Source: an uncultured Candidatus Bathyarchaeia archaeon
GTDB lineage: Archaea > Thermoproteota > Bathyarchaeia > Bathyarchaeales > Bathyarchaeaceae
Direction: 5' to 3'
Length of the DNA: 64,000 bases
Assembly (NCBI GenBank): GCA_964556565.1
Contig: CAZKWF010000001.1
Coordinates: 33,035 to 97,034 of the forward strand
Made by a program: the position numbers and the translations under genes. The notes beneath the pieces are model-generated. The model had not been told where the DNA came from. It did not search any database and was given only the letters and a program-made list of their open reading frames with translations. Below are positions 8,427 through 59,524 of this stretch, piece by piece. Positions within the stretch are counted from its first letter, which is position 1; each line of letters begins with the position of its first letter.

Positions 8427-9464
8427 TTGGGAGTCAACCTCACACCCATCATAATCAAAAAAACAATACGTTTAGAAGACCTCAGAGACAAAAACCTTGC
8501 AGTAGACGCCAACAACACACTATATCAATTCTTATCGCTAATTCGAACACCAGACGGAACACCCCTAAAAGACTCAAACGGACACATCACCTCCCACCTC
8601 ACAGGACTCATGTTCCGCTCCACACACCTAATACACAATTACGGAATCAACCTAATCTTCGTTTTCGACGGAAAACCCCCACCACTCAAAGAACAAGAAA
8701 TCGCAAAGAGACGAGAACTCCGAAAAAAAGCCACAAAAGAATGGGAAAAAGCACTCGAAACAAAAGACTACGCCACAGCATTCTCCAAAGCAGTTATGAC
8801 AAGCCGCTTGACAAAACCATTAATTGATGACGCAAAACAACTCCTCAAACTCCTCGGAATACCTTTTATTCAAGCACCCAGCGAAGCTGAAGCTCAAACA
8901 TCCTACATGGCTGCAAGAGGCGACGTTTGGGCTTCAAGCAGTCGTGACTACGACGCTCTTCTTTTTGGATCACCCCGCCTCTTAAGATATCTCACAATCT
9001 CAGGCAAGGAGTTTCTACCCAGCAAGGGAGTTTCTCGACCATTGAAACCAGAACTCATCGACTTGAAGAAACTCCTTTCCTATCATGAACTCACTCATAA
9101 ACAACTCATAGACCTAACAATCTTGATTGGAACCGACTTTAATAATAGAGTGAAAGGAATAGGCCCTAAAACAGCCTTGAAGCTGTTGAAAAAATATGGT
9201 AACATAGAGAAACTACCCAGCAACGTTAGGTCAAAGGTTCCTGAACACTACAATGAGGTTCGAAAAATCTTCTTAAAACCTAACGTCACATCTGACTACG
9301 CTCTTAAATATGGAAAACTCGACGAAAAGAACCTCCATCAATTTCTCTGTAACCAACGAGATTTTTCTGAAAAAAGTGTAGGAACTGTTATTCAAAGAAT
9401 GAAGAAGTTTTACTCAACCAAAAAACAAACTAGCCTGAAAAAATGGTTTGCCATGCCTAACTAG
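8427..9464 (+). CDS. fen: Flap endonuclease 1 (FEN-1)
   Basis: 345 aa with a TTG start. MGVNLTPII..., AVDANNTLYQFL, FVFDGKPPPLK and GTDFN match the XPG-N/XPG-I organisation. Confidence 0.95.
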   Translation: MGVNLTPIIIKKTIRLEDLRDKNLAVDANNTLYQFLSLIRTPDGTPLKDSNGHITSHLTGLMFRSTHLIHNYGINLIFVFDGKPPPLKEQEIAKRRELRKKATKEWEKALETKDYATAFSKAVMTSRLTKPLIDDAKQLLKLLGIPFIQAPSEAEAQTSYMAARGDVWASSSRDYDALLFGSPRLLRYLTISGKEFLPSKGVSRPLKPELIDLKKLLSYHELTHKQLIDLTILIGTDFNNRVKGIGPKTALKLLKKYGNIEKLPSNVRSKVPEHYNEVRKIFLKPNVTSDYALKYGKLDEKNLHQFLCNQRDFSEKSVGTVIQRMKKFYSTKKQTSLKKWFAMPN

Positions 9465-9550
9465 TATTTTTGAGACGTAACCGTCATTTACTTCTGAATC
9501 TCCGAACGGCAAGACAGAACTGACCAAGAAAAAAGACAAGGCCCTTTAGG

Positions 9551-9844
9551 CTACTCAGTTTCGCCTTCCTTCGCTTCCTCTACGGTTTCTGCTTCCACTT
9601 TTTCCTCCGCTTTTCCAACCACTTCTGCTTCAGCGAATCTTCGACTTATCTTAGTTATCTTTATCCGCACATGCTCACCAGGTTTGGCATTTGGAATGAA
9701 GCACACGAGTCCCTTGATTCGCGCAATGCCTTCGCCTCGACGGCTAGTCTCTTGAATTTCCACATCGTATTCTTTTCCTAACTCAACGGGTTTTGGGGGA
9801 AATCGTGAGGCATATCCTCTGCGCTCTCCTCTTTCATATCTCAT
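9551..9844 (-). CDS. TRAM-domain protein
   Basis: 97 aa. GKEYDVEIQETSRRGEGIARIKGLVCFIPNAKPGEHVRIKI is a TRAM beta-barrel signature. Acidic C-terminal tail. Confidence 0.85.
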   Translation of the reverse strand: MRYERGERRGYASRFPPKPVELGKEYDVEIQETSRRGEGIARIKGLVCFIPNAKPGEHVRIKITKISRRFAEAEVVGKAEEKVEAETVEEAKEGETE

Positions 9845-9903
9845 GTTTTCACCTCTGCTTATTTTTGAACAAAACTCTTCATTTTAAAGAAACTGATGTT
9901 GAC

Positions 9904-10194
9904 CTATGTGATGTTCAGGGTCCCGTATTTCCCTACGTTTAGTTGAATCTCTCCTCTGAACGAAGTGATATATCCGTTTTCAATCTTGACTGTGTCGTCA
10001 ACGTTAACTTGATCGATTTGTTCGTTCCACAGAGTTAGCTTTATTGTACCAGTGTCGTCGCTAACGAGAGCATCCGCAACGCGGTATGTCTCATTTTTGT
10101 ACCTTGACTGAACCTCACGAGGATCTGATTTTTCGGTCACCTTTGCTACGACATTTACTCTCCGCATTCCATTCCTCAACTCTTTAATTTTCAC
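9904..10194 (-). CDS. Single OB-fold nucleic-acid-binding protein (short SSB/RPA-like)
   Basis: 96 aa. OB pattern VNVVAKV...DDTGTIKLTLWNEQ...V.IENGYI. Has a 4-nt ATGA overlap with the upstream TRAM gene. Confidence 0.7.
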   Translation of the reverse strand: MKIKELRNGMRRVNVVAKVTEKSDPREVQSRYKNETYRVADALVSDDTGTIKLTLWNEQIDQVNVDDTVKIENGYITSFRGEIQLNVGKYGTLNIT

Positions 10195-10484
10195 AACGTT
10201 TCCTCCTGTCTGCTTATTTTCTCCGCGATAGCAAATTTTTTCCCAACACTCACGATTTTCACCTTCAGACGCTCCCCAACCTTGACTTGAGGTACAAATA
10301 TTAGAAAGTTTTGTATTCTCGCTATTCCGTCGCCTCTTGTGCCTATGTCATTTATGACCACATCGATTTCTTGCCCTTTTCTAACTGGAACTGGTTGAAA
10401 AGGTATAGCGTCGAACTTCCGTTCTCTTTTATGTTTACGCCTCGGTCTTACGTGCCTTGGTTTTTCTGAAAGCCTTCTCGGCAT
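10191..10484 (-). CDS. TRAM-domain protein with basic N-terminal tail
   Basis: 97 aa. GQEIDVVINDIGTRGDGIARIQNFLIFVPQVKVGERLKVKI. Paralog of 9551-9844. Confidence 0.85.
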   Translation of the reverse strand: MPRRLSEKPRHVRPRRKHKRERKFDAIPFQPVPVRKGQEIDVVINDIGTRGDGIARIQNFLIFVPQVKVGERLKVKIVSVGKKFAIAEKISRQEETL

Positions 10485-10810
10485 CTGTTCTTTCGTCCCT
10501 TATCGCGGAACCAGCCATCCAGACAGAACTGCATTGTCGGTAAAGCGACTTCTAGCGTAGCTCCGTTCCGGTATGCCGGTGAAGATGAAGGATTATTGAT
10601 GTTGAATATAAATTTTGTCATGTGGCGATTTCGTAGATTGGAGGCGGTGGTAAGCAGGCTAGATCAAAAGACGCACGTGAACTAAACAGGCCAGGACCCA
10701 CATAGAGAGACAAAGACGGGCATTTTCTTTCTGTCTGTCTCCAAGAAAACATTCAAATCTATCATAAAACGATAAGCTGAAAGCTATTCCTAGAGTTGGT
10801 AAGAGCTTAG

Positions 10811-42775: not shown

Positions 42776-43690
42776 TTGACAGAGTACCTTGTTGGAACAG
42801 GCGGTTGGGCCTACTTCAAAGTTCCGAACAAACTTTCACTAAAAGCTTATTCTGAAAACTTCAACTTTGTAGAAGTGAACTATACCTTTTACAAATATCC
42901 TAGCGCCAAAATGGTGGAGAGATGGCGGCAAATAGTACCTAAGGATTTCACATTCACCGTTAGATGTCATCAAGACCTAACTCATAGAATCGGCTTTGTA
43001 CCAGTAGACCAAGCTTACGCAGTATTCGGTCGGATGATAGGTATATGTAGAATCCTTGACGCTCCCTTTCTACATTTGCTGACACCTGCAAGCTGTGTTC
43101 TCGACCACGTAAAGATAAGACAAGCAGAAGATTTCTTCTCAACAATCGATCTGAAGGGCGTACGCCTTGTTTGGGAAGTAAGAAGCCCCATAACTACGAA
43201 ACTCGTCAATCTTATGGAAGACTTTGGGATAGTCTATTCAGTTGACCTATCAAGGGAACCGCCAGCATACGAATCTGGTGTTATCTACAGCAGGGTTTTC
43301 GGTAAGGGGAAGCACAACCTCTACCAGTTCACTGATGAGGAGCTTGGGGAGATCGATCAGAAAATACTCAAAACTGAAGCGAAAATCGCAGTCATTACAT
43401 ATCATGGTCCACGAATGACAAGCGATGCTTTGAGATTCACGAAATACAAAGAAACAGGGAAATTTCCGCCAGTTACTGCTCACACAGGGATTGAATCAGC
43501 CAAAACAGTTCTTCAAGAGGATGCTAGACTTCCCTCAACAAAAGCAGAACTTGTCAGGCACCAAGGCTGGAAGGTAATCGATCTAGCAGCCGACAAGAGA
43601 GTCCACCTACATGAGTTACTTTCTAAAATACCTGAGAAGACTTACAATAGCATCCAAGAAGTGATTGAAGAATTGGAGGGTATCCAATGA
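42776..43690 (+). CDS. DUF72-family protein (divergent)
   Basis: 304 aa with a TTG start. YLVGTGGWAY...VEVNYTFYKYPS matches the DUF72 N-terminal signature. Confidence 0.75.
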   Translation: MTEYLVGTGGWAYFKVPNKLSLKAYSENFNFVEVNYTFYKYPSAKMVERWRQIVPKDFTFTVRCHQDLTHRIGFVPVDQAYAVFGRMIGICRILDAPFLHLLTPASCVLDHVKIRQAEDFFSTIDLKGVRLVWEVRSPITTKLVNLMEDFGIVYSVDLSREPPAYESGVIYSRVFGKGKHNLYQFTDEELGEIDQKILKTEAKIAVITYHGPRMTSDALRFTKYKETGKFPPVTAHTGIESAKTVLQEDARLPSTKAELVRHQGWKVIDLAADKRVHLHELLSKIPEKTYNSIQEVIEELEGIQ

Positions 43691-44517
43691 GCACAAGCAA
43701 CATTTTGCTAGGCACTTCAGGTTGGAGCTACAGGGAGTGGATAGGACCCTTCTATAGTAAGGGGGAGAAGAGTATGTTGCGTGCTTATGGAAGAGTCTTC
43801 AAAACGGCTGAGATAAATTCCACGTTCTACAGGTACCCTACAGATAAAATGGTCATGGGTTGGACGAGATATAGCCCTGCTGACTTCGTGTTCACGGCGA
43901 AGCTACCTAAGCTTATCACTCATGAGAAGAAACTCGATTTGGAGCAAGGGGTTGAGGAGGATCTTCAAAGATTTTGTGAAACAATGCGAATTCTGCTATT
44001 GAACGGGAAACTTGGGTGTTTGCTCATTCAGTTGCCCCCAAAATACGGGTATGATGTTGACCATTTGGAGTCTTTCTTCAAAATTCTTCCCGCCGACTTC
44101 AAATTTGCCGTGGAATTTCGCAACCTATCGTGGCTACAGAGTGAAACATGGAATTTGCTGAACAGATACAAGGTTGCTTACACCATCGTCGACGAGCCTC
44201 TGTTGCCGCCTGAAATTCACGTAACCTCAAGCTTTGCCTATTTCCGTTGGCACGGAAAGGGTGACAAACCGTGGTTTAACTACAGATATTCAAAGGATGA
44301 GTTGGAGCCTTGGATACCAAAGGTGAAGGAGACTTCTAAGAAAGTCAAGAAGGTATACGGCTATTTTAACAATCATTTCCACGGGTATGCACCTGAGAAC
44401 TGCCTGCAGGTATTGAAAATACTTGGCATGATCGAGTCTGGTCAGCAAGAAGCAATGCGACGCGTCAAAAAACACAGGCAAAAGCCGAAACAGACAACTC
44501 TCGGAGCATTTGGTTAG
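43687..44517 (+). CDS. DUF72-family protein
   Basis: 276 aa. ATGA overlap with the upstream DUF72 gene. About 70% identical by eye to residues 1-270 of the 10894-12096 product. Confidence 0.85.
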   Translation: MSTSNILLGTSGWSYREWIGPFYSKGEKSMLRAYGRVFKTAEINSTFYRYPTDKMVMGWTRYSPADFVFTAKLPKLITHEKKLDLEQGVEEDLQRFCETMRILLLNGKLGCLLIQLPPKYGYDVDHLESFFKILPADFKFAVEFRNLSWLQSETWNLLNRYKVAYTIVDEPLLPPEIHVTSSFAYFRWHGKGDKPWFNYRYSKDELEPWIPKVKETSKKVKKVYGYFNNHFHGYAPENCLQVLKILGMIESGQQEAMRRVKKHRQKPKQTTLGAFG

Positions 44518-45016: not shown

Positions 45017-45757
45017 CTAGGTTCTCTGGAATATCTGCGATAAATCTTCAAAGATTCTTTCATAACGTTTTACTTTTGTGCTTTCCCATCCTTTCTTGAA
45101 ATCCTCTCTGAGAATGTAAACACCATCCAACTCATACTCAGCGATTATTCTGTTTCTGCTTTTCCCGTCAAACGACCCTTTTTTATTCTTACTTATGATG
45201 AAGTCGTCGTCATTATCCGTAGTCGCTAAAAAGACACGGATGTTTTTTGTAACGTCCGATGATACTAGTTTCAACTTCCAATAACATGCTTGTGCTATCC
45301 GCTCTCGCAAGCTTGTCTTACAAGATATTATTGCTATTATATCGGATTTCCAAGGCTCTAAATTCGCAAATTTAACAATAGCTAGATCAGTATCTGGAAG
45401 TAGCAAGTATTCTCCATACTTCACAGCAAGTTTTCTGAGGATAATATCATTCTTTTTTATCTCGTTTTCTTGCAGAACTTCAAAATCCCGAAAGCTCTGG
45501 TCTTGGCTTTTAAGCTTAAGCAGGTACCCTTTGGTGATGGAGTAAATAACTTTTTGAAACTTATTTCCTATGTAACCATGCCAAGATTGTTCTAGGTCTT
45601 TGTCAGGATGAATCTGCCTCAAAACTTCGATGTACTCGTCTTTCAGTTTCTGAATCTCGTCCCATGCTGTCTCAGGAGGCAACTCTCCGGTTTTGACTTG
45701 ACTTATTAAGTTGTCTATCTTTTTTCTTGGGTCTGCTTTCATTTCTTTCCTCTCCAA
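45017..45757 (-). CDS. Type II restriction endonuclease-like PD-(D/E)xK protein
   Basis: 246 aa. LLLPDTDLAIV ... IIAIISCKTSLRERIAQ is a PD...SxK variant with the K-T-S-x-R-E-R tail common in type II REases. Lies 27 nt downstream of the methyltransferase gene. Confidence 0.65.
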   Translation of the reverse strand: MERKEMKADPRKKIDNLISQVKTGELPPETAWDEIQKLKDEYIEVLRQIHPDKDLEQSWHGYIGNKFQKVIYSITKGYLLKLKSQDQSFRDFEVLQENEIKKNDIILRKLAVKYGEYLLLPDTDLAIVKFANLEPWKSDIIAIISCKTSLRERIAQACYWKLKLVSSDVTKNIRVFLATTDNDDDFIISKNKKGSFDGKSRNRIIAEYELDGVYILREDFKKGWESTKVKRYERIFEDLSQIFQRT

Positions 45758-45784
45758 TTGAAGGGTCGACTACTCATTTGACTT

Positions 45785-47038
45785 TTACCTTTCGTATTGG
45801 GTCCACTCAATTTTCCGCGGCTTAGTCCTTTTGATTTTCTCTCCATTTGACTTTCGCATAATAAACAAATATTTGAAGCCTCGTAGAAAGAAGTTGAATC
45901 GTCTTGCACGATTGTACCACAAGCCCGTATGTGATGCTTGTCCTCTTCTGGCTATACATATAATATCGACTGTATCGAAGTGTTTGCATAATCTTTGATA
46001 AACTTTGAACCCTACTGGAGTAAATTGTCTTTTTACCCATTGGTCGCCAATTAGCCATCCAAGTACTTTTCCAGACTTTAGAATCCGATGACATTCTTTC
46101 ATCACCTTTTCAAGCTCATCGTAGAACAGTTCATTTTCACTTGAAATCTTACCTATGCAGTCGGCATGTTCATTATATCTTATGTTATCCCCATATGGAG
46201 AGTCAACGAATACTAGATCTACATGATTACCTGTGAGAGGAATTTTTCGTGAGTCATTTTGAATAATATCAGATCTTACTGGCGCAATATCGTAACCAAT
46301 CACTCTACGACCTTCTTCTTTGCAAACATCAATTGTGGTGCCACTACCGCACATTGGGTCGACTACCAAATCTCCAGGTTCGGTGTATCTCCAAATAATG
46401 TTCCATATAAGTAGAGCAGGTGTCACACCCGGATACTTATTATCCCCTTTGGGATATTTACCGTAGCTTTGTCTAGGAAAATCCCAAAGAGTTGTGGCCT
46501 CCAACAAAGGCAGTTCTTCATGAGGATCTTGGCCAATTTGCTTCACTTCACCTAGTAACTCCCATGATCTAAGTTCCTTTGATACCTCGAGATCTGAACC
46601 TTCGGTTTCTAACAAGAATTGGAACCAGTCGTCCATCCGTAAATTTTTGGGACGATAAAGCTCAAGGAGTTTAATAGTGACTTTCCTGTTCATAGGAGAA
46701 GAACGTTCTATTCCCAATGTTTTCAGCAGTTTCTTTGCGTTTTTTGTTGGTATAATTTTTCCAAGGGGTTCTGCTTTCACCTGATATGGATATTTGCCAT
46801 CCCATGCTTCTGGCTGGATGTTCATCTCTGCATCAGAGGTCGCTCTGAATACACCGTATAGCATGTCAGAGTCCAGATTTAGAAGGAATAAGAAGCTTCC
46901 CTTTCTCACTTTCATTGCAGCGGGCGCATAGAGCCTGTTTGTTCCGAAGAGCAGACGACTGAAGCATTCATTCTCCGATTTATTCGTACATGCAAAAACT
47001 TGTCCATGTATGATTGATTTCTTGGAGAGCTGAAGCAA
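45785..47038 (-). CDS. DCD (PUA-like) domain fused to an N4/N6-type DNA methyltransferase
   Basis: 417 aa. The N-terminus IHGQVFACTNKSENECFSRLLFGTN...GSFLFLLNLDSDMLYGVFRATSDAEMNIQPEAWDGKYPYQVK matches the DCD consensus. The C-terminal half has LVVDPMCGSGTT (motif I) followed by VFVDSPYG (motif IV). Confidence 0.8.
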   Translation of the reverse strand: MLQLSKKSIIHGQVFACTNKSENECFSRLLFGTNRLYAPAAMKVRKGSFLFLLNLDSDMLYGVFRATSDAEMNIQPEAWDGKYPYQVKAEPLGKIIPTKNAKKLLKTLGIERSSPMNRKVTIKLLELYRPKNLRMDDWFQFLLETEGSDLEVSKELRSWELLGEVKQIGQDPHEELPLLEATTLWDFPRQSYGKYPKGDNKYPGVTPALLIWNIIWRYTEPGDLVVDPMCGSGTTIDVCKEEGRRVIGYDIAPVRSDIIQNDSRKIPLTGNHVDLVFVDSPYGDNIRYNEHADCIGKISSENELFYDELEKVMKECHRILKSGKVLGWLIGDQWVKRQFTPVGFKVYQRLCKHFDTVDIICIARRGQASHTGLWYNRARRFNFFLRGFKYLFIMRKSNGEKIKRTKPRKIEWTQYER

Positions 47039-47230
47039 TAGTAAATATCTCCCTTCAACTTGTTAAGTAGAACTGCTTATTTAAGCATAGCAGAACTCGA
47101 AAACTTACCTTCCTAGCTTATGCGCACTTGGATAAATAATAAAATGTTTGTTAAGAAAAAAAGGAAAACTGTTCTTTTAATCTATTCTATCTCTGGAAAA
47201 GTTATAAGAGAACACGTGCTCTGATTAAAT

Positions 47231-47238
47231 TGCATGCA
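47231..47238. repeat. ATGCATGCAT-family palindrome (8-mer core)
   Basis: tgcatgca, 34 nt upstream of ATG 47272. Confidence 0.6.
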
Positions 47239-47271
47239 GTTTTTATATTCTGATTACTACTATCCTTAGTC

Positions 47272-48312
47272 ATGAGTTCAAAATTAGGCTTCTCAGAGTG
47301 GCCTTTCCGTACAATCCCAGACGAGGAATTCGTCAAGATATGGTGCGGTCGTAAAGAACTCTACGAAAGATTAGATAGGATATTCAACGGTATTGTCCGA
47401 AGACCGATGTTCCAGATTCATTTGGTGTACGGAGATTTTGGAACAGGGAAAACACACAGTATCAAGCATATGATAACCAAGTACCGTGAAAAGGTTAAGC
47501 TCTTGACGTCAGAGTTAGAATACGATATCACAATTAGGACGTTCACACAGTTATATCAGGCTCTGGTGAGTCGGTTAGACTTCAAAACAATTATAAAGTG
47601 GCCTAATCCCCCAGAAAAGAATTTCTGGCATGATTTTAGGTCTTTTGTTGGAGCAATCAAATCAAAGGACGAAGAAGAAAAAACAATAGCCACGAGATGG
47701 TTTACAGGTGAAGAAAAAAGCAAGAAAGCTCTAAGCAGAATCGGTATCAGAAGCCCTGTAGACAGCGTTGACACAACTATACGTGCATTTTCGCAACTCA
47801 CCAAACTGGCTGGGAGAAACAGATCTGCAGTTGTGTTGTTTATAGACGAGTTCCAACATATTGGCAAGCTCAACAGGAATTGGAAGGAGAGCATCCTGAA
47901 TGGATTAACCAAACTGGTGAACTCAAGCCCAAAGCATTTTTGTCTAATAATCTCGTTCAGACTTAGAATGCCGATGAAAATCCTTTCAATTATCCCGGAG
48001 AGCATGAAAACTAGATTCTCAGGGGATCCATTCATAGAGGTTACAAACTTTTCCAGAGATGAAGCGGAAGAATTCATGAAATGCCTTTTTAGGAAATTTC
48101 GCACTCGTAAATCTGAAGATCCATATCTTCCCTTCACACCCGAAGCTTTTGAAGCAATATTTGCGTTTCTAAAGAAGAGGAATGTAGAGTACAATCCCAG
48201 ATCTTTAATGAAGGTATTCGGATATGTAAGTGAGCGCTTTGAGGATTCCTCCCAAAACCCACCAATTTCTGAAGATTTCACAAAGGTATCATTGTGGTCT
48301 TATCAGGCATAA
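47272..48312 (+). CDS. ORC/Cdc6-like P-loop ATPase (paralog of 52274-53437)
   Basis: 346 aa. CGRKELYERL..., Walker A VYGDFGTGKTHS and Walker B VVLFIDEFQH. Its stop lies 1 nt from the convergent 48314-49351 stop. Confidence 0.7.
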   Translation: MSSKLGFSEWPFRTIPDEEFVKIWCGRKELYERLDRIFNGIVRRPMFQIHLVYGDFGTGKTHSIKHMITKYREKVKLLTSELEYDITIRTFTQLYQALVSRLDFKTIIKWPNPPEKNFWHDFRSFVGAIKSKDEEEKTIATRWFTGEEKSKKALSRIGIRSPVDSVDTTIRAFSQLTKLAGRNRSAVVLFIDEFQHIGKLNRNWKESILNGLTKLVNSSPKHFCLIISFRLRMPMKILSIIPESMKTRFSGDPFIEVTNFSRDEAEEFMKCLFRKFRTRKSEDPYLPFTPEAFEAIFAFLKKRNVEYNPRSLMKVFGYVSERFEDSSQNPPISEDFTKVSLWSYQA

Positions 48313-48313
48313 G

Positions 48314-49351
48314 TCATTCCGGTAAATTGTGTGGATACGTGTATAAACCATCGATTATGGGTGAAAACGCTTCTTTGTCGAAGACAAGATTTGTCGAAGT
48401 AGTATGAACCTCAATCCGACCTCTTAGCCTAGAAAAAATTTCTGGGCCTTCGGGGACTTCTGAAAGATCTCTCCAAATAGGATTCTTCGTTGGAACTTCC
48501 TTTTCAACTGCTGCTATTGATTCCACGAATTTCGGAGCATGACTTGTTATGCAGGAAGTTTCAACTATCCGAGAATTGTAAAGAATTAACACGTTTTGTA
48601 GAAATCGTTTCTGAACTGAGTTATCTTTCGAGAACATGAGGACGGGATCACCACGATAGAGAGGTTGGTTTATGTAGGCGTCTAACATGCCACTAATGAA
48701 GTTTTTCAGTTGTTTTGAATTCAGCTGCATACACACTCTTTCAAGCCGAGCAGCACATATTATTCTATGAAGTTCTGCCAACGCATTTCCCTTGAGTATA
48801 ATCCACAAATGTCCAAGCTTTCCTTTTTTTATTTTCACCACAATCTTCCTGTTTATACTATCTGCTAAACTCGTGATGCAATGTTCGACGAATTTTACAT
48901 ATTTAGGATCGGTCGCATTACGGACCAGCGAGACAATACATTTGTTGTTACTACTTACAATATCGGTAGCCAACCCGCTTCCATACACCGCATCGGATTG
49001 CCAATCCATGATTTCTCCTTTCACTCCTGGTACGAACTCAGGGGATTTAGGGGGATTGTAAAATTCAATAGCGCTGACCGAACATAGATCCTTTGTCTTG
49101 AAAGGCCTCTCTGAAAAAACAACAGTTTCAGGTACCAGAACACTATCTGTAGTTTGTGTGATCAGCCTAGTGCCACAGGATTTCTCTTCATTGCGTAATC
49201 CGACTTTCCGGTATTTTGTGTGCTTACCTATTCCTTCGACACCTAAGACCTTCGCATCTCTTGGAAGTTGGTTCAGAGAAATGACTCCACATCTGGTGAA
49301 AACAAAGCTATCCTTCGAAACTACTACGCCATAGCTCATTTCATATCCCAA
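48314..49351 (-). CDS. Free-standing intein-like protein (degenerate Hint + LAGLIDADG domains)
   Basis: 345 aa. Block-A-like VVSKDSFVFTRCGVISLNQL, LAGLIDADG-like YGSGLATDI and FISGMLDAYI, and terminal IEVHTTSTNLVF...IDGLYTYPHN followed by only 3 residues. The nucleophile and the TxxH His are absent. Confidence 0.55.
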   Translation of the reverse strand: MGYEMSYGVVVSKDSFVFTRCGVISLNQLPRDAKVLGVEGIGKHTKYRKVGLRNEEKSCGTRLITQTTDSVLVPETVVFSERPFKTKDLCSVSAIEFYNPPKSPEFVPGVKGEIMDWQSDAVYGSGLATDIVSSNNKCIVSLVRNATDPKYVKFVEHCITSLADSINRKIVVKIKKGKLGHLWIILKGNALAELHRIICAARLERVCMQLNSKQLKNFISGMLDAYINQPLYRGDPVLMFSKDNSVQKRFLQNVLILYNSRIVETSCITSHAPKFVESIAAVEKEVPTKNPIWRDLSEVPEGPEIFSRLRGRIEVHTTSTNLVFDKEAFSPIIDGLYTYPHNLPE

Positions 49352-49776
49352 GGTATAAAGAAAGTTGGTGAATCTAGGGTACCCTGATAGTCCACTATAC
49401 CTTCTAAAAGAAGATGTGTAAACAAGGTCCTCACTATTAACGATGAATATCCAGTGAGTCGCGAAGCATCTGTGACAGACAACTTCTTTTTCTTGTACAG
49501 CATTTTCATTAACGGTGATAGAATGCTACTTAGATTGTTCTCCTTTGTCGCAAGCGTAAAAAAGGAGTAAGGTCTCTCTTTTTTGCTCAATGCAATATGC
49601 TCGTAGATTTTTCGTTCGATCACCAATTTCTTTATGATTTCATTTACTTCATTTCTTGATGTATCACTTGCTACATTTTGGATAATATGAATCAAATGTG
49701 GTTTGTTCACGATCAATCTTGATCCTATCTGCTCAAAAACGTGTTCCACGATTTTCTTGTAACTGTTGATTGTCAA
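49336..49776 (-). CDS. Small protein with two wHTH-like halves
   Basis: 146 aa. 16-nt overlap with the downstream Hint-like gene. Confidence 0.45.
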   Translation of the reverse strand: MTINSYKKIVEHVFEQIGSRLIVNKPHLIHIIQNVASDTSRNEVNEIIKKLVIERKIYEHIALSKKERPYSFFTLATKENNLSSILSPLMKMLYKKKKLSVTDASRLTGYSSLIVRTLFTHLLLEGIVDYQGTLDSPTFFIPWDMK

Positions 49777-49787
49777 AGTAGTTCAAC

Positions 49788-50831
49788 CTAAAGTTTGATT
49801 CTGAGAAACCTTTTTTCGCCGTATCTGTCTGGAAGTATCTGATACCTATGCCTATCGTTTGTTTGCGCCTCATTTATCATTTCCCTAGCTTCAGATTCCT
49901 TCAGTCTATAACCTTGTAAGCCTTTTTGAATCACCAGTATATTAATCAAAGTGTTTATGTCGCAAACATTGAAAGCTGGGTCACGCAATTTTTCGTACAG
50001 GTTCTCTACATGTTCAATCGTTTCTTGACCTGAAACTATCTTGGTTCCTGGGTATCCACAGTTTCTAAGAAGAGTGTGCAATAGATCCTCCTGCGCTCGT
50101 GAAACAACTGTCTTGTAATTTGGTAAGAATCTAATGATTTCACAGTATGGCCTTACAACGTTTTTCTCTAAGAAGGAAATTCTATTGTTGCTGGGTCCCT
50201 CTCTATTTACAAGGTTCAAGTCTTCCATGATGCCAAGCGAAGGCTTTATCTTTGGATATAACGCCTTGGCGGTTTTTCCTCGTCTAACCGCTTTTCTATA
50301 CAACTTTAGATATCTCCTTCGAATGTCTAGACTATGAACAGACTCGACAGCAATCTTGAGTGCGTGGACGTAGACGGAGAAAGCATGATCAACCAATTCG
50401 TTTTTTGGCAGCATTTTTCTCGCCTTATACCAGCGGTAATCGTCACGGATTTCCCCAAATCTCTCAAGGTGATCGTGAAGCGATTTCACCATAGCATAAT
50501 TCTCCAATAGAAAACATCTCAAAAAAAAGATCTTGAATTCAACGGGAAGCTCTATCGGAATTTCCTCTACTGGTGTGAAAAATTCCAGAGTTCTACCCCA
50601 TGGAGTCAATTTGTTGTTCCTGAAAATCACTTCCAGTTCTTTTGCTATCGTTATTGTGTATTGTATAGACCTTTTATTCTGTTTATATCCTTCTTCAATC
50701 CCATGGATTTTCCTGAAGGAACTCAATGCCTCTCCAAACTTTCGAGCAATCATCATATCAGAACTTGGCTCTCTTGTCTTGACGCATCCCTTGAGAAGCA
50801 GTGCAAAATAGACAATCTTGTCAACTTGCAT
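49788..50831 (-). CDS. Alpha-helical hypothetical protein of the island operon
   Basis: 347 aa with no recognisable motif. Gaps of 11 and 23 nt to the neighbouring genes. Confidence 0.5.
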   Translation of the reverse strand: MQVDKIVYFALLLKGCVKTREPSSDMMIARKFGEALSSFRKIHGIEEGYKQNKRSIQYTITIAKELEVIFRNNKLTPWGRTLEFFTPVEEIPIELPVEFKIFFLRCFLLENYAMVKSLHDHLERFGEIRDDYRWYKARKMLPKNELVDHAFSVYVHALKIAVESVHSLDIRRRYLKLYRKAVRRGKTAKALYPKIKPSLGIMEDLNLVNREGPSNNRISFLEKNVVRPYCEIIRFLPNYKTVVSRAQEDLLHTLLRNCGYPGTKIVSGQETIEHVENLYEKLRDPAFNVCDINTLINILVIQKGLQGYRLKESEAREMINEAQTNDRHRYQILPDRYGEKRFLRIKL

Positions 50832-50854
50832 ATGTGTATTAATAAGAAGAGGCT

Positions 50855-52267
50855 TCAGTACTCTTTTCCACCATGAACGCTTACACGGGGTCTTATTTTG
50901 ATTGTGAATAGTCTGTTGACCGTCTCAGAGGAGATTATGCAGTACCCAAGTTTTAGGTCTCTACCTACCTCTTTAAAGAGATTTCTTTGTATTTCTCTCG
51001 AACCTATCTTTGCTCTTTCGAAATCTGATGTATTTCTCATGTTATATGCAGTCAAGATGTCTTGATCTCTTGATAGGCTATGGATAATTCCGATGTCTAG
51101 ATTCGCCTGAATTGAGGCATCGAGAGCTGAAGGCGATTGTGTGGCGAAAGCAGCAGATAACCCTATGTTCCGACCCTCTTTAACATATTTTAAAAGAGGC
51201 CCTTTTGAAGGCGGACTTCTTGTGGCAGGTATGTAGTTATGTGCTTCATCCATCAGGATCCAACCTCTTGGCGTCCACTCTTTTTTTAGTAAGAGTTGAA
51301 GTTTCTTAATTTCCCCTTTGTAATCAGATGAAGATGACTTGGTTAATAATTCCAATCTCTTCTCACATTCGTCCGTTATACCTCGGGCTTGGAAGATTTT
51401 TCGAGTTAGGACACCAACCACAGTCGTTCTCAACTCTTGTTCTAGATCCCGTAGCAACAAAACTGAGATTTTTCCATCCTTGAATATTTCCCGCACAGGT
51501 ATAGAGAAAGAGCCAAATATTTTTGCCAATTCAAGAGACCGTACTCTTCTAAATGCCGCATCCAAAGTTTTTTGTTCATATCGGTTCTTGGTTGAAGATG
51601 ATTCAAGCTTCGAATAAATATCAGAAAATGAAATTTCATCTTGCTCTTGCAGTGAAGTAATTAGATCCATGAATAGCTGTCCAAGGGGATCGGCTATCGG
51701 ATCTAATCCAAACATAAAACACCAATCTGCAGGTTCAAGATCTTTTAGGCTCAGCGAAAACTCAGTGAACTCAGGCGGATAATAATCCCTCTTGTATCCG
51801 TATGGAAAATAGAAGTCCGCAGGGACTTTTTCCTCCTTAATTCCCCATCTTTCAAGTTCGTTAATTCTCTCTTTTCCCTCCATGCTGGCTAGGTATTGCA
51901 TGCCCCAAAATACGTTGAGGGAATCAAACACTATAACAGCTTGGTGATCCTTCATCTGATTTATCCACTGCTTGCTAACTAGGCCCTCTGCAAGCACACC
52001 TAATGTATAGCTCTTGCCACTACGTCTTTTTCCCATAACGTAAACTATGTGGGCTCTATCAGTGTCCATCCAGACATCACAAGAATTAGTATCATATTCA
52101 TTGGATTTGCCAAGATATATACAAGATGGCGAATCCTCAGATGAGGAGCCAATGATCATGCCAGTTTTGGATGACCATGGCTTTTGTGGCTTAAGTTTTG
52201 GCAGAAAGCGATACCATTGTTCAAAAAGGATTCGTCTGAATTCAGGAATGTTTTCTGGTTTATCCAT
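50855..52267 (-). CDS. HerA/FtsK-superfamily ATPase (DUF87-like)
   Basis: 470 aa. Walker A MGKRRSGKSYTLG and Walker B WILMDEAHNYIP, plus GRNIGLSAAFATQSPSALD and GIIHSLSRDQD, as in HerA-type ATPases. Confidence 0.75.
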   Translation of the reverse strand: MDKPENIPEFRRILFEQWYRFLPKLKPQKPWSSKTGMIIGSSSEDSPSCIYLGKSNEYDTNSCDVWMDTDRAHIVYVMGKRRSGKSYTLGVLAEGLVSKQWINQMKDHQAVIVFDSLNVFWGMQYLASMEGKERINELERWGIKEEKVPADFYFPYGYKRDYYPPEFTEFSLSLKDLEPADWCFMFGLDPIADPLGQLFMDLITSLQEQDEISFSDIYSKLESSSTKNRYEQKTLDAAFRRVRSLELAKIFGSFSIPVREIFKDGKISVLLLRDLEQELRTTVVGVLTRKIFQARGITDECEKRLELLTKSSSSDYKGEIKKLQLLLKKEWTPRGWILMDEAHNYIPATRSPPSKGPLLKYVKEGRNIGLSAAFATQSPSALDASIQANLDIGIIHSLSRDQDILTAYNMRNTSDFERAKIGSREIQRNLFKEVGRDLKLGYCIISSETVNRLFTIKIRPRVSVHGGKEY

Positions 52268-52273
52268 ATCGAT

Positions 52274-53437
52274 CTACTCAACAAAACGTGAGTAAACATA
52301 TGGGGATTTGTCTAAGGCTGCGTTTCCAACAGCATTTGATAAGGCGTCGATCAATCTTCTCGGAGTTAGCTGAGACTCTTCAGTTATGCCTGCCAAAATT
52401 TGTTCCAAAGCTTCTTCAGAAAATGGATAAGTCGAATCATCGACTTTTTCATTTGGTGGGCTTTTAGCTGTCTTTGCTTTAATGTTGCATTTTGGGTCTC
52501 TCACGTATTGTATAACATCCTTCATAAACCTCATGGCATCAGGTTGTTCTAGTGTTGGGATTTCAATCCTGTTTCTCGGCCCTATTCTACTTATCACAGG
52601 CTCTTCGACAACTGTGGTTTCTGTTTCCCACCCACCAGCCTCAGTCGAGATTGACCAAATTACTGAAATGTACTTATTCGATTTGTCTGCCAATCTTAGA
52701 AATCCAAGGTTTAGTGAATCAAGTGCGTCATTGCTCAGGTCTTCCCAGCGTTCACACTCGTCCAACAGAATAATGATTTTCTTTTTCTCATAGGTCTCAA
52801 ACAATTTACCTATTGTTTCTAGCATCTTCACTAACATCTGTGGGTCAGCTTCTTTCAAATGAGAAGATACGCCTAAGTTGCTCAAATCTGAACTTGAGCT
52901 TGTGCTTCCTATCAGCCAGCGCCACACTAGGTTCTCGTCGGCCAAACTAATGCTCAGAACGCTCGCAAGATCATAATTAACTTCCTCAAGTCTCTTGTGG
53001 ATTGCAGCTGCCAGTTCGTCTCGCTTCCATCCAATTTTTTGCTTTATGAAATCTTGTTGTAGCTTTTGGAATAGCGTCAATATTTTTGGCTTACCTATAT
53101 TTTTGAGGATGTGTGCATACAAATCAAGAAACCTTGCATTTCTCGGGAAATCAGGGGCAGAGACGTACACAATCTCCACACCATATGGCGTTTTAGAAAG
53201 AGCTTGCTTAAGAGCAGTCGTCACCGTGAACAGAGTATGTGTCTTTCCTGCCCCATATGTACCAGTGACAAATCGCTTAGGACATCTAGCGGTTACAAGA
53301 TCAACTCGGATCTTTCTGGTTATTGAATCTACGTCGACTCCACTTCGTGGAACGTAAAAACCTGAATCTTTATCAGCGTATATTTCGAAGTTGTTTCTGC
53401 CTTTTTTAAGAGAGTATAGTTCTTGCACTGTAGACAC
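52274..53437 (-). CDS. ORC/BrxC-like P-loop ATPase
   Basis: 387 aa. Walker A TGTYGAGKTHTL and Walker B KIIILLDECERW. Shares the post-P-loop pattern (..F..LY..) with the 47272-48312 product. Confidence 0.7.
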   Translation of the reverse strand: MSTVQELYSLKKGRNNFEIYADKDSGFYVPRSGVDVDSITRKIRVDLVTARCPKRFVTGTYGAGKTHTLFTVTTALKQALSKTPYGVEIVYVSAPDFPRNARFLDLYAHILKNIGKPKILTLFQKLQQDFIKQKIGWKRDELAAAIHKRLEEVNYDLASVLSISLADENLVWRWLIGSTSSSSDLSNLGVSSHLKEADPQMLVKMLETIGKLFETYEKKKIIILLDECERWEDLSNDALDSLNLGFLRLADKSNKYISVIWSISTEAGGWETETTVVEEPVISRIGPRNRIEIPTLEQPDAMRFMKDVIQYVRDPKCNIKAKTAKSPPNEKVDDSTYPFSEEALEQILAGITEESQLTPRRLIDALSNAVGNAALDKSPYVYSRFVE

Positions 53438-53449
53438 AAAACAACCCTT

Positions 53450-54193
53450 CTAGTTGGAAATCTTAAACCTTTTCCAAGTAATAAGACTTGCTAATCTTGC
53501 TTTGGCTTCTCTAAATAATCTATCATCGTATATACAAAGAGAAAGTTCAGGGTTTCTAGAGAAGGTGAGGTTTTCCGAACCCAATAACAGGACTCGATTT
53601 CTCCAAGAATCTATGCTTTGTTCAAGCAAGTAGACCTTGGCATGTACACTTCCATGTAGACTTATTTTTCTAATACCTTGATTCCAGAGCCATCTAAGAG
53701 AGTTCTCAATACTATTTCTTAGATTAGCAGTTGCCGTCTTTTCCGGAGGTCGAGTTATGATCTGAACTCTATGCACCTTCTCCAAACATCTCTTGAAACG
53801 AGATTGATGTTCCTTTCCTATCACAATCCAAGGTGAACAGATCCAAAAACTCTCCAATTTTGGCAATTTTTCCATAAAAGACATGATGAAGTTACAAGCA
53901 TCATTCACCAAACGAGGTTTGCGGCTTTGCCGATGAAAATTCATTAGCGCCTGTAGAGAGCGTTTTCCAAATAGATATCCAAGATGGTAGAACCATTCCT
54001 TACCCTTATCTGTGAGACATACCATATCCTCTTTCACATCAATGAGAAGGGTACCAGACATCTGCTCAATCTGGTCAAACGATAGATTATATGTCGAAAG
54101 CACGCCCGAGAAATACACTCTAGAAACTGGACCGCGTTGAAGAACTGAGCAGATATTTAAGAGAGCTTCAAGACTTGCTGGTTTTGAACTCAT
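53450..54193 (-). CDS. wHTH + single-HKD phospholipase-D-family nuclease
   Basis: 247 aa. FWICSPWI, then LHGSVHAKVYLLE...LLLGSENLT (HxK...GSxN). The N-terminal ~90 aa are wHTH-like. Confidence 0.75.
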   Translation of the reverse strand: MSSKPASLEALLNICSVLQRGPVSRVYFSGVLSTYNLSFDQIEQMSGTLLIDVKEDMVCLTDKGKEWFYHLGYLFGKRSLQALMNFHRQSRKPRLVNDACNFIMSFMEKLPKLESFWICSPWIVIGKEHQSRFKRCLEKVHRVQIITRPPEKTATANLRNSIENSLRWLWNQGIRKISLHGSVHAKVYLLEQSIDSWRNRVLLLGSENLTFSRNPELSLCIYDDRLFREAKARLASLITWKRFKISN

Positions 54194-57685: not shown

Positions 57686-59524
57686 TTAAGCCAAGTTGGC
57701 AATGTAGATATCGATGAGTTCTCGAATCTCTACCTGCGCTGTACAGTCCACGATCCAGTCGTTTCCGTCAGGTGACAAGCCGCAACCATCAACGTGCCGT
57801 CGTGTGTTCTCCAGCAGCTTCATCGCTTCATCAATATTGCCGTCAGCCACGGCTAGTTCGACATCGTTGAGTATGTTGATCATGGCATTCCTAAGACCTC
57901 GGCTACGACTTCGATCCTTGAAAGCACTATCTGGCAAAGCGTTTATGGCATTCTGAAGCCACTCCACGTCTTCCCCGTCTGGTATGCCGTCGTCGTCAGT
58001 ATCAGAGTCCAACGGGTCAGTTCCGTACTCAACCTCCAAACCATCAGTGAGACCATCGTCGTCAGTATCGGAGTCTAGGGGATCAGTGCCGTAGACGTCA
58101 ACCTCGTCACCATCCGTGAGTCCATCGTCGTCACTATCAGGGTCCAAGGGGTCAGTACCGTAAACATTAACCTCGTCACCGTCAGTTAAGCCGTCGTCGT
58201 CGCTGTCCGTGTCTAGTGGGTCTGTACCATAGACATTAACTTCGTCACCGTCTGTCAGTCCATCGTCGTCGCTATCAGAGTCATCCGGGTCTGTGCCCAT
58301 CGCGATCTCCGTTCCATCCATGAGACCGTCGTCGTCGCTGTCCAAGTCAATTGCGAATGTTAGATTTCCAAGCGGTGGGGTGTATGTTGCGTTGATTGCT
58401 CCGATTTCGGGTTCAAGGAGGGGAACTGGAAGGTTGCCCATACCTACGAGGGTTCCGACACCTGGGTCGAGGCCTAGGATGTTAGTTGCTGCAACTGCGT
58501 CTCCGATTGTATCATCTAGACCTATCTGCTGGTAGAGGGGGCCTAGGCTGCCGGAGAATATGTTGATAGTTCGATCACCAACTATGGGGTCCAAGAAGCC
58601 CTTCATGTCGAGGTTCAGGTCTATGTCTGCAGATGTATTCAGCCAGTGGAGAACGGGTGTTAATAGTGCATTGACGGTATCAGGTTCATCTGGGAGCTGA
58701 ACGGTAACATCTAGAGTCTCACCGGCAGTTCCCCACTCGAGGATGCTTGGAAACCCTGGAAACCCCAATATCGGACCTGGATCTGTGATGTTAGCTCCAG
58801 TGGCATCGATGAAAGCCACCGCGCCACCGGCACCGCCTCCTATAGGTGTATCAGGAAAGTCATCTAGAGGCACAGGCGAAAGCGTAAGGGCGCTTGTTAA
58901 ACTCGCATCAAGTATGTGAAGGGTGAAGAGAGTCAAACCGATTGTACTACTACTCATAGGGACAACGACAGACGGTTCTCCGTTGAGAGGTGCTGTGAAG
59001 TTTGCTGATCCTGTGGCCAGATCCATGGGTACTGGTACGTTGTCGATAAGTTCAAGTTCTACGAGAAAGGGAATGATAGCGGCACCGAAGGGAATTATTA
59101 GCTCAGTCCAGGCTAGCGCGGTGACATTGAAAGAGACGGTGATCACTGCTGATGCATCAAGGCTGATCTCTGGGCCAGAATCATCGGTGGGTGTGTAGGT
59201 TATCTGTAGTGGCATGGGTTGTCCGGGCAGAATATCCGCAGTGTCATAGGTGAGAGTTATGTCAACTCCCATGTCAACCATGACATTAGCCGTTCCATTG
59301 ATGTCAAATTCGTAATTGATTAGTTCCTCACCAAAAGGTCCTAGAAGCGCATCGTCTATGTTTTCGTCAAACGTGAAAGTAGCGTTGAATCCAAGTCGCA
59401 GATGCTCCGTAATGGTGACCTCGGTTTGGGCATGTACAGATGGGACGAGTGCAGACGGAAACAACACCAAGGAAGCGAACATCAGGATTATCAGGCTCAA
59501 TGTGCCTACGTGGTTTCTTCTCAT
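57686..59524 (-). CDS. Secreted protein with thrombospondin-type-3-like Ca-binding repeats
   Basis: 612 aa. Signal/TM segment at the N-terminus, with about 6 tandem units TDPLDxDSDDDGLTDGDEVNVYG. Confidence 0.75.
   Translation of the reverse strand: MRRNHVGTLSLIILMFASLVLFPSALVPSVHAQTEVTITEHLRLGFNATFTFDENIDDALLGPFGEELINYEFDINGTANVMVDMGVDITLTYDTADILPGQPMPLQITYTPTDDSGPEISLDASAVITVSFNVTALAWTELIIPFGAAIIPFLVELELIDNVPVPMDLATGSANFTAPLNGEPSVVVPMSSSTIGLTLFTLHILDASLTSALTLSPVPLDDFPDTPIGGGAGGAVAFIDATGANITDPGPILGFPGFPSILEWGTAGETLDVTVQLPDEPDTVNALLTPVLHWLNTSADIDLNLDMKGFLDPIVGDRTINIFSGSLGPLYQQIGLDDTIGDAVAATNILGLDPGVGTLVGMGNLPVPLLEPEIGAINATYTPPLGNLTFAIDLDSDDDGLMDGTEIAMGTDPDDSDSDDDGLTDGDEVNVYGTDPLDTDSDDDGLTDGDEVNVYGTDPLDPDSDDDGLTDGDEVDVYGTDPLDSDTDDDGLTDGLEVEYGTDPLDSDTDDDGIPDGEDVEWLQNAINALPDSAFKDRSRSRGLRNAMINILNDVELAVADGNIDEAMKLLENTRRHVDGCGLSPDGNDWIVDCTAQVEIRELIDIYIANLA
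57965..58348. repeat. About 69-bp tandem coding repeats (TSP3-like units)
   Basis: Recurrent ccgtcgtcgtc...gggtc(a/t)gt(a/g)cc blocks on the plus strand. Confidence 0.8.

Follow-up and report, generated by a model that had tools for sequence, protein, structure and literature searches.

An intein-like gene at the end of a six-gene operon

The 64,000-nucleotide window analyzed here (from contig CAZKWF010000001.1 of an uncultured Candidatus Bathyarchaeia archaeon; coordinates refer to this window unless another locus is named) contains a minus-strand gene at 48314..49339, with its stop codon at 48314-48316, whose product of 341 amino acids (aa) has the predicted fold of an endonuclease-containing intein but is devoid of exteins and of the canonical residues for splicing and DNA cleavage. 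Six minus-strand genes are closely packed here (54193 to 48314, gaps of 6-23 nt), and this one comes last. In each of 16 core loci, to the extent covered by the contigs, the intein-like gene is preceded by genes for a PLD nuclease, an AAA+ ATPase, a DUF87 ATPase, a 347-aa protein and a 146-aa protein, in this order, and is followed by the gene of a convergent AAA+ ATPase. An earlier note, made from the sequence alone, had placed the gene at the end of a nuclease/ATPase operon, and both the PLD nuclease and the ATPases are present in this six-gene order.

The note had read the gene as an open reading frame of 345 aa (48314-49351, minus strand) that begins at an in-frame TTG at 49351. This reading frame exists and contains the peptide segments quoted from it, but the true start is most likely the ATG at 49339, since the M-x-Y-G start that corresponds to it is the one used in public gene calls and in all 25 aligned homologs. 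The ATG shares an ATGA overlap with the stop codon of the upstream 146-aa gene, which is read in a different frame, and only 1 nt separates the stop codon of the intein-like gene from the end of the convergent ATPase gene at 48312. Counted from the ATG, only four to five residues precede the block A-like region and about five follow the Hint core, leaving neither an N- nor a C-extein. The same boundaries recur in about 30 homologs from independent assemblies, which agrees with the proposal that the protein is free-standing.

Directly before the Hint core, residues 1-4 (49328-49339) include an invariant Tyr3-Gly4, which we take to be similar to the "...Y-V-G" that closes the N-extein of VMA/AtpA inteins. 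VMA inteins are the best structural matches of the protein, and the dipeptide may be a relic of the ancestral insertion site.

An intein fold missed by sequence profiles and recovered by structure

Sequence-based methods do not recognize the protein. Scans against Pfam (in a set that includes the Hint, Intein_splicing, Hom_end and LAGLIDADG models), PADLOC, NCBIfam and PHROGs returned no family, even at E≤1, and when 15 family members were scanned with sequence profiles, a single match resulted, to Hom_end at E 0.21. Searches of PDB sequences with phmmer and with a profile of the family yielded nothing relevant, the profile giving no match at E≤10. Alignments of the family with PI-SceI and I-DmoI by hhalign were non-significant (probabilities of 0.07-12%); these served as a check on register and not as evidence of homology, and were made with verified reference sequences, that of PI-SceI having been checked against PDB.

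Structure comparison, in contrast, identified the fold. An AlphaFold2 model built from an alignment of 25 homologs (predicted local distance difference test score, pLDDT, 81.8; predicted template modeling score, pTM, 0.86) is beta-rich in its N- and C-terminal parts and alpha/beta in between. Its top Foldseek match in PDB is the endonuclease-containing TliVMA intein (E 1.8e-9), followed by PI-SceI (E 2.5e-7 to 3e-6), the LAGLIDADG enzyme I-DmoI (E 1e-4, TMt ~0.6), and then mini-inteins (DnaX, gp41-1, DnaB) and a bacterial intein-like domain (BIL), with E-values of 4e-3 to 0.09 and TMt of 0.41-0.55. Among the predicted viral structures of BFVD, 161 matched at E≤1e-3 (best E 9e-13, TM up to 0.62). 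The top matches aligned over about 370-470 columns, and nearly all of those with annotations were terminases, ribonucleotide reductases, polymerases and similar classes of intein hosts, or were annotated as Hint or homing endonuclease proteins. Because the model matches endonuclease-containing inteins over its full length in two structure libraries, the intein-like order of blocks that the earlier note had noticed is not a chance pattern, and the modeled structure confirms the architecture of a Hint domain with a LAGLIDADG domain. The profile and structure searches that had been proposed as a check thus diverged: the former found neither domain, and the latter led to TliVMA, PI-SceI and I-DmoI.

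The two domains take up all 341 aa, with no room for an additional one. The N-terminal Hint part (residues 1-100; 49040..49339, minus strand, as are all segments of the gene) is beta-rich in the model and carries a block A-like FVFT..G...L...LG and a block B-like R58-L-I-T-Q62-x-T64-D65-S66. It is followed by the degenerate LAGLIDADG endonuclease-like domain (residues 101-295; 48455..49039), whose counterpart in Foldseek is I-DmoI and whose two LAGLIDADG helices are predicted at residues 115-123 and 208-222, carrying YxxGL and AGMLD, respectively, in agreement with the two alpha-beta-beta-alpha-beta-beta-alpha subdomains of such enzymes. The C-terminal Hint part (residues 296-341; 48317..48454) consists of block F/G-like strands (modeled at residues 302-320, 325-329, 332-334 and 337-339) with an invariant F325-S-P327..D330.L332...P336.

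One segment is peculiar to the family: a loop of sequence E-T-S-C-I-T-S-H-A-P-K (residues 260-270; 48530..48562), hereafter the ETSC loop, in which E260, T261, S262, C263, T265 and P269 are invariant. It occupies the site at which the beta3-beta4 hairpin of the second LAGLIDADG subdomain would be expected; this region is modeled as a low-confidence loop, and residues 261-272, which cover the ETSC loop, form the sole low-confidence stretch of the model. The loop is not present in distant relatives in the family alignment. Just beyond it, residues 281-295 (48455-48499) contain a conserved P-x-x-N-P-x-W that hhalign aligned with residues 278-291 of PI-SceI (NTENPLWDAIV; E 0.01-0.03, probability 2-4%). 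This match is probably due to chance, though the location within the endonuclease domain is common to both proteins.

Neither splicing nor cleavage residues are retained

In the register obtained by motif anchoring, the equivalent of the catalytic Cys1 of inteins is V5, which is Val in 21 of 25 aligned sequences and Ile in the other four, so that no Cys, Ser or Thr nucleophile is available; the following position varies among V, E, M, P, K, L and S. An hhalign alignment of residues 13-36 with residues 9-32 of PI-SceI, although of low probability, agrees with both the motif anchoring and the predicted order of strands. The Thr-x-x-His of block B is replaced by T61-Q62-A/T-T64, which has no His. 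These features match what the earlier note had read from the single sequence, a Val in place of the nucleophile and a missing block B His. Moreover, none of the alignment columns is at least 90% His among the 25 sequences, and the block B and block G His residues are therefore absent whatever register is adopted.

The same note had taken the terminal His-Asn as block G, a resemblance that proved coincidental: His occurs in four and Asn in three of the 25 sequences at positions 337-338, the last five residues are variable, and a terminal HN is not a feature of the family. The positions of the intein His-Asn are probably taken by Y335-P336, a placement based on distant relatives, several of which end in ...V-H-(S/A/T). 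The residue that follows the block G positions is not conserved, and there is consequently no +1 nucleophile. A class 3 mechanism, which uses a block F Cys and the block B His, was considered and ruled out, as no Cys beyond residue 263 is invariant in the family and a conserved His is lacking.

The LAGLIDADG motifs have been altered in a similar manner. In motif 1 (residues 115-127, AYxxGLxxNx; 48959..48997), which hhalign aligned with the motifs of PI-SceI and I-DmoI at probabilities of 7-12%, Y119 and G122 are invariant and the catalytic position is non-acidic: it holds I, V, R, P or K, or, if the register is shifted by two residues, S, Y, I or H. Across positions 126-129 (N/S/K, I/V/R/P/K, V/I and S/Y/I/H), there are never conserved acids. 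In motif 2 (residues 208-223, F-V-A-G-M-L-D-A-Y-I; 48671..48718), G217, L219 and D220 are invariant, but D220 is the counterpart of D324 of PI-SceI, which is not catalytic; position 222, the equivalent of the catalytic D326 of PI-SceI, is Tyr in 17, His in six and Arg in two of 25 sequences. Judged by its sequence against canonical criteria, the protein is therefore doubly inactive, in splicing and in DNA cutting. No family member has an acidic residue at either LAGLIDADG catalytic position, which makes the suggested role as a nicking subunit unlikely. The fixed genomic location of the gene in all loci argues likewise against mobility.

A rare family under purifying selection

A search of 5.8 billion proteins recovered 27 homologs (39-100% identity, 294-352 aa, those of full length 338-352 aa), none of which contains a Pfam domain, and a profile search of 1.84 billion representatives recovered 13 proteins, including distant free-standing relatives of 338-357 aa. 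The family amounts to about 30 proteins from Bathyarchaeia-type metagenomes. It was found neither in the representative (species) genomes of GTDB nor, by alignment scan, in a collection of viral contigs.

Despite its rarity, the gene is well maintained. Its ratio of nonsynonymous to synonymous substitution rates (dN/dS) against the two closest homologs is 0.19-0.21, internal stops are absent from six copies of the gene, and 49 alignment columns are invariant across sequences with identities down to 39%, among them S8, R58, Q62, T64, D65, S66, T313, S326 and D330. Conservation is unevenly distributed: block A-like residues 12-15 (majority identity 0.99) are among the most conserved segments, followed by block G-like residues 321-336 (0.86), block B-like residues 56-70 (0.85) and the ETSC loop (0.81). 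The protein is under purifying selection and is functional rather than a relic or an artefact.

Two metagenomic copies (L067, 843-1745; L068, 1743-2645) show no match to the first 36 residues, and no small-protein or 347-aa genes were detected upstream of them, with the convergent ATPase present; these may be truncated or rearranged systems. A distant family member of 495 aa, encoded at two loci (L058, 1147-2634; L059, 2178-3665), is a fused-domain variant whose intein-like body is preceded by 120 additional N-terminal residues that include a C-x(24)-C-x2-H pattern; its neighborhood contains no matches to the operon proteins of the window.

The family B DNA polymerase (PolB) encoded in the window is up to 81% identical to those of Bathyarchaeia metagenome-assembled genomes, which places the host among the Bathyarchaeia. 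A PolB 63% identical to the Bathyarchaeia gene was found on a contig labeled "Candidatus Limnocylindrales bacterium" (DATHCJ010000024.1), which is probably a mis-binned archaeal contig. Two Bathyarchaeota PolB loci (L053 and L054) were considered as intein-bearing and rejected: their matches begin at residues 351 and 541 of the query and represent fragmented PolB genes.

The operon and its genomic island

The operon begins with the presumed effector, a PLD/HKD-family nuclease of 247 aa (53450..54193, minus strand; Pfam PLDc_2, E 8e-7, with weak matches to DrmC) with one intact HxK...GSxN motif (VHAKVYLLE...GSENLT). It is followed on the same strand by a BrxD- or Orc-Cdc6-like AAA+ ATPase (52274..53437; Pfam BrxC_BrxD, E 3.9e-5, AAA_22 and KAP_NTPase; Walker A GTYGAGKT; weak NCBIfam matches to BrxD and ORC1) and by a HerA/FtsK-like ATPase (50855..52267; Pfam DUF87, E 3.5e-8; Walker A GKRRSGKS), which in PADLOC matches mad8 (E 7e-16), several HerA models and the model of the DndH C-terminus.

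The two genes that separate these ATPases from the intein-like gene encode candidate DNA-binding proteins. The 347-aa product of the first (49788..50831, minus strand; AlphaFold2 pLDDT 87.3) is probably a multi-winged-helix protein: its Foldseek matches are weak (N.BspD6I, E 0.04; FokI, E 0.2; PaqCI, E 0.74; and the winged helix-turn-helix of ORC), and those to N.BspD6I, FokI and PaqCI fall on the DNA-recognition parts of these type IIS enzymes. Its distribution is as narrow as that of the intein-like protein, and on the same contigs. The second gene (49336..49776, minus strand), the one ATGA-coupled to the intein-like gene, encodes the small 146-aa protein, which shows a weak helix-turn-helix signal (HTH_Mga, E 0.033), and it lies directly upstream of the intein-like gene in all core loci. 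Compared with a related locus (L002), the intein-like, 146-aa and 347-aa proteins are 46%, 43% and 47% identical, respectively, vs. 65-75% for the ATPases, and by this measure the three form a fast-evolving trio.

Facing the operon is the second AAA+ ATPase (47272..48312, plus strand; ATPase_2/BrxC_BrxD/Orc-Cdc6-like; Pfam BrxC_BrxD, E 2e-11, AAA_16 and ATPase_2), a paralog of the first and the most constant neighbor of the intein-like gene, adjoining it in all core loci as well as in two distant ones (L056 and L057). Direct matches of the operon ATPases to orc1/cdc6 are weak (E 7e-4 to 0.06). Beyond it lies a DNA methyltransferase (45785..47038, minus strand; N6_N4_Mtase, E 4e-25) that adjoins the operon, on either side, in seven other core loci (L002-L004, L060, L061, L064 and L065) and is likely its modification partner. 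This enzyme has an N-terminal Dev_Cell_Death (DCD) domain (E 9e-20), and the fusion is kept in all related loci that extend that far. DCD domains are otherwise known mainly from plants; here, the domain may be a reader of modified bases or nucleic acids fused to a modification enzyme. Next to the methyltransferase is a BsaWI-family type II restriction endonuclease (45017..45757, minus strand; Pfam RE_BsaWI, E 5e-26), which is found in several, but not all, related loci.

Together, these genes form an island (45017-54193) with housekeeping genes on both flanks. Elsewhere in the window, a tandem pair of overlapping DUF72 genes lies downstream of the island (42776-43690 and 43687-44517, both plus strand; E 3e-27 and 1e-63), and a minus-strand gene at 57686-59524 encodes a protein of 612 aa in which the bacterial thrombospondin type 3 repeat (TSP3_bac, E 9e-23) occurs four times.

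Distant relatives of the system, one with a possible alternative modification enzyme

One distant locus (L056) encodes homologs of the PLD nuclease (25% identity, E 3e-16), the AAA+ ATPase (29%, E 1e-50), the DUF87 ATPase (41%, E 4e-125), the 347-aa protein (26%, E 4e-8) and the convergent ATPase (30%, E 2e-45). Here, and in one other distant locus, the 146-aa protein is replaced by a protein of 424-452 aa with TFIIB cyclin repeats (L055, 1907-3181, E 4e-23; L056, 979-2337, E 2e-15), whose gene lies directly upstream of, and overlaps, the intein-like gene. One of these TFIIB-repeat proteins has a middle region to which the 146-aa protein shows no more than marginal similarity (E 0.006). At the end of the L056 operon (9097-10662), in the place held by the methyltransferase in the core family, is a phosphoadenosine phosphosulfate (PAPS) reductase of the DndC/BrxP-like type with a ferredoxin-type signal. 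Since L056 keeps homologs of the operon proteins and has the PAPS reductase in the place of the methyltransferase, the core of the system appears to be conserved, and the comparison suggests that its DNA-modification module is interchangeable.

A possible role in defense

From the make-up of the operon, which is that of a modification-linked anti-invader system and is apparently undescribed, we infer a role in defense. We hold it somewhat more probable than the other readings combined that the protein is an exapted, doubly inactive intein that has become a fixed subunit of a HerA/Orc-type defense system, in which it evolves fast and serves, without catalysis, in recognition or as an adaptor. 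The former DNA-binding saddle, the strongly conserved Hint cleft once used for splicing and the ETSC loop would then bind DNA, partner proteins or both, the candidate partners being the convergent Orc/Cdc6-like ATPase and the small protein whose gene is translationally coupled, or its TFIIB-like replacement. In this capacity, the subunit could help to localize, target or license the PLD nuclease and the HerA translocase. Self DNA would be marked by the methyltransferase or the PAPS reductase. Membership in the fast-evolving trio fits a role in specificity or sensing, and the Hint-N and LAGLIDADG parts are basic (isoelectric point, pI, 9.2-9.3).

Several observations weigh against this interpretation. 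The first LAGLIDADG subdomain, usually the DNA-reading surface, is the least conserved part of the protein (majority identity 0.44-0.58), and with the second hairpin poorly modeled, an intact DNA saddle is not assured. Across the family, the pI ranges from 4.9 to 9.6 and is thus not uniformly basic; the operon already has other candidate DNA binders; and PADLOC calls no complete known system at the operon. In addition, the residue equivalences derive from motif anchoring and low-probability hhalign alignments and not from structural superposition.

It is possible, if on balance rather unlikely, that the protein does not bind DNA and serves instead as a scaffold or regulator through protein-protein contacts, with the Hint cleft and ETSC loop docking a partner, for instance the small upstream protein or the Orc/Cdc6-like ATPase, or sensing an invader protein and thereby controlling the assembly or activation of HerA and PLD. 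Conservation peaks in the ETSC loop and in the Hint segments that resemble blocks A, B and G rather than in the LAGLIDADG beta-saddle, and because the Hint cleft is more conserved than the saddle, a pure protein adaptor stays credible. An invariant loop with low pLDDT is what one would expect of a segment that becomes ordered upon binding, the convergent ATPase accompanies the gene throughout, distant loci included, and DNA binding could be supplied by the other winged helix-turn-helix-type candidates. However, the LAGLIDADG scaffold is undiminished in size and still has its two helices as well as a conserved beta3-beta4 hairpin (GKLGHLW), the N-terminal two thirds of the protein are basic, and known co-opted LAGLIDADG scaffolds, such as WhiA, bind nucleic acids.

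A bolder version of the recognition hypothesis, which we consider a long shot, holds that the silent intein has kept a homing-endonuclease-like recognition of a long conserved site, of the type that occurs in essential viral genes (polymerase, terminase or ribonucleotide reductase), thereby giving the HerA/Orc-Cdc6/PLD system an innate, sequence-specific means of detecting invaders, with host DNA marked by the methyltransferase or PAPS reductase. Such genes are the classical homing sites of inteins.

That the protein is still an enzyme, a nickase or nuclease with non-canonical residues such as E260, C263 and H267 of the ETSC loop together with D220, seems improbable. Invariant D220, E260, C203 and C263 do lie near the LAGLIDADG region, H267 is present in 21 of 25 sequences, and the system has no obvious nuclease other than PLD; but both canonical metal-binding positions are non-acidic in every member, even when shifted by one or two residues, distant relatives of the same architecture lack the ETSC motif, and the operon's PLD/HKD nuclease has its motif intact. 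Still less likely is a decaying selfish remnant, i.e., a dead intein or homing endonuclease that hitch-hikes in a defense island without any function: the loss of catalytic residues and the extreme rarity of the family (13 matches among 1.84 billion representatives) speak for such an element, but a dN/dS of ~0.2 with no stops or frameshifts in any copy, 49 invariant columns at identities down to 39%, a position and translational coupling fixed in every locus, and the location of distant relatives in a homologous system all contradict it. Finally, only the fold would favor a true intein with exteins masked by sequencing frameshifts, which the earlier note had named as a refutation of its own proposal, or by incorrect gene calls. 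This case can be dismissed almost outright because the boundaries are shared by ~30 independent assemblies, the ATGA overlap upstream is in another frame, the convergent gene 1 nt from the stop leaves no room for a C-extein, and the protein has neither a nucleophile at position 1 or +1 nor a block B His.

Inteins are usually seen as purely selfish elements. If the recognition or adaptor reading is correct, the Bathyarchaeia protein would be a prokaryotic case in which a complete Hint and endonuclease scaffold has lost both activities and become an obligatory, fast-evolving component of a defense operon, representing both a new building block for immune systems and a new fate in the intein life cycle. 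The operon itself would then be an apparently undescribed archaeal system composed of a PLD nuclease, HerA, two Orc/Cdc6-like ATPases, winged-helix proteins and an interchangeable modification enzyme. Moreover, as these intein-like proteins are invisible to sequence profiles and detected by structure prediction, more of them may hide among genes annotated as hypothetical.

Comparison with known systems

The Bathyarchaeia protein has the layout of the PI-SceI (Sce VMA1) and Thermococcus litoralis TliVMA (7qss) inteins, a Hint domain split by a LAGLIDADG domain with two motifs, in the block order A, B, LAGLIDADG 1, LAGLIDADG 2 and F/G, but differs from both in lacking exteins, a Cys/Ser/Thr nucleophile, the His of TxxH, a conserved terminal His-Asn and the catalytic Asp/Glu of the two LAGLIDADG motifs. 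Whereas inteins are mobile insertions, this protein is the product of a fixed operon gene under purifying selection. An intein with almost no exteins (66 aa in total) has been reported from Arthrobacter (Arth_1007), where it is not a functional host gene and was described as a pseudogene of a DnaB-type intein (PMC3196547). That element is recognizable by its sequence, unlike the Bathyarchaeia family, which is under purifying selection in a conserved operon. In a review on the recruitment of mobile elements in prokaryotes, inteins appear only as splicing switches and not as domesticated proteins that stand alone (PMC8987985).

Among textbook examples, only yeast HO is, to our knowledge, an entire intein that has become a host protein, and the earlier note had likened the present protein to it. 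HO and WHO are intein-derived proteins with an active LAGLIDADG endonuclease, a zinc finger and a host function, and do not perform protein splicing (PMC7282813). The comparison stands insofar as both are free-standing, intein-derived proteins with a LAGLIDADG domain that have been recruited by their hosts without splicing, but fails with respect to activity: the Bathyarchaeia protein has neither the nuclease residues nor the zinc finger, and is archaeal and one subunit of a multi-gene operon.

With respect to the dead nuclease scaffold, WhiA is a closer analog of the Bathyarchaeia protein than HO. WhiA, the best-known dead LAGLIDADG scaffold, was not among the top 50 Foldseek matches in PDB. 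It combines a catalytically dead LAGLIDADG scaffold with a fused C-terminal helix-turn-helix, is widespread in Gram-positive bacteria and regulates genes for cell division and sporulation (PMC3384342, PMC3781837). Both proteins have thus kept a LAGLIDADG scaffold without catalytic residues for a host role that does not involve cleavage, but WhiA has no Hint domain, and its helix-turn-helix is fused, whereas here a weak signal for one resides in a separate upstream gene.

At the level of the operon, two known systems were considered and rejected. MADS requires mad6, mad7 and mad8 according to its authors' model; the mad8 model matches the DUF87 ATPase, but the mad2 model matches the methyltransferase in a generic manner, and there are no matches to mad6 or mad7. 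In PbeABCD (CxC-ABC-DndE), PLD is fused to a superfamily 2 helicase, with a CxC ABC ATPase and a DndE cognate; the PLD protein of the window has no helicase, and no matches to the ABC ATPase or DndE were obtained.

The closest described class is that of the HerA/FtsK and Orc/Cdc6 counter-invader systems, in which effector nucleases occur together with winged-helix proteins that evolve fast and with inactivated enzyme domains that serve as binding modules (PMC10853773; PMC12839542), and in which BrxD is classed as an Orc/Cdc6 AAA+ protein (PMC12839542). In common with these, the Bathyarchaeia operon has a HerA-like ATPase, AAA+ ATPases that may be of the Orc/Cdc6-BrxD type, probable winged-helix-type proteins, a nuclease and a linked modification gene. 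The two differ in their nucleases: the capture systems combine a restriction endonuclease with an inactive restriction endonuclease inserted in the Orc/Cdc6 protein, whereas a PLD/HKD nuclease is present here and no restriction endonuclease-fold match was found by Pfam within the six-gene operon and convergent ATPase. Neither PMC10853773 nor PMC12839542 mentions an intein or LAGLIDADG component. The fast-evolving set of proteins in the Bathyarchaeia operon matches the components of HerA/Orc-Cdc6 systems described as "rapidly evolving DNA-binding/sensory" (PMC12839542; PMC10853773), and WhiA, HO and the inactive enzyme domains of the HerA capture systems can be read, by analogy, as precedents for the retention of a dead or co-opted scaffold such as this one.

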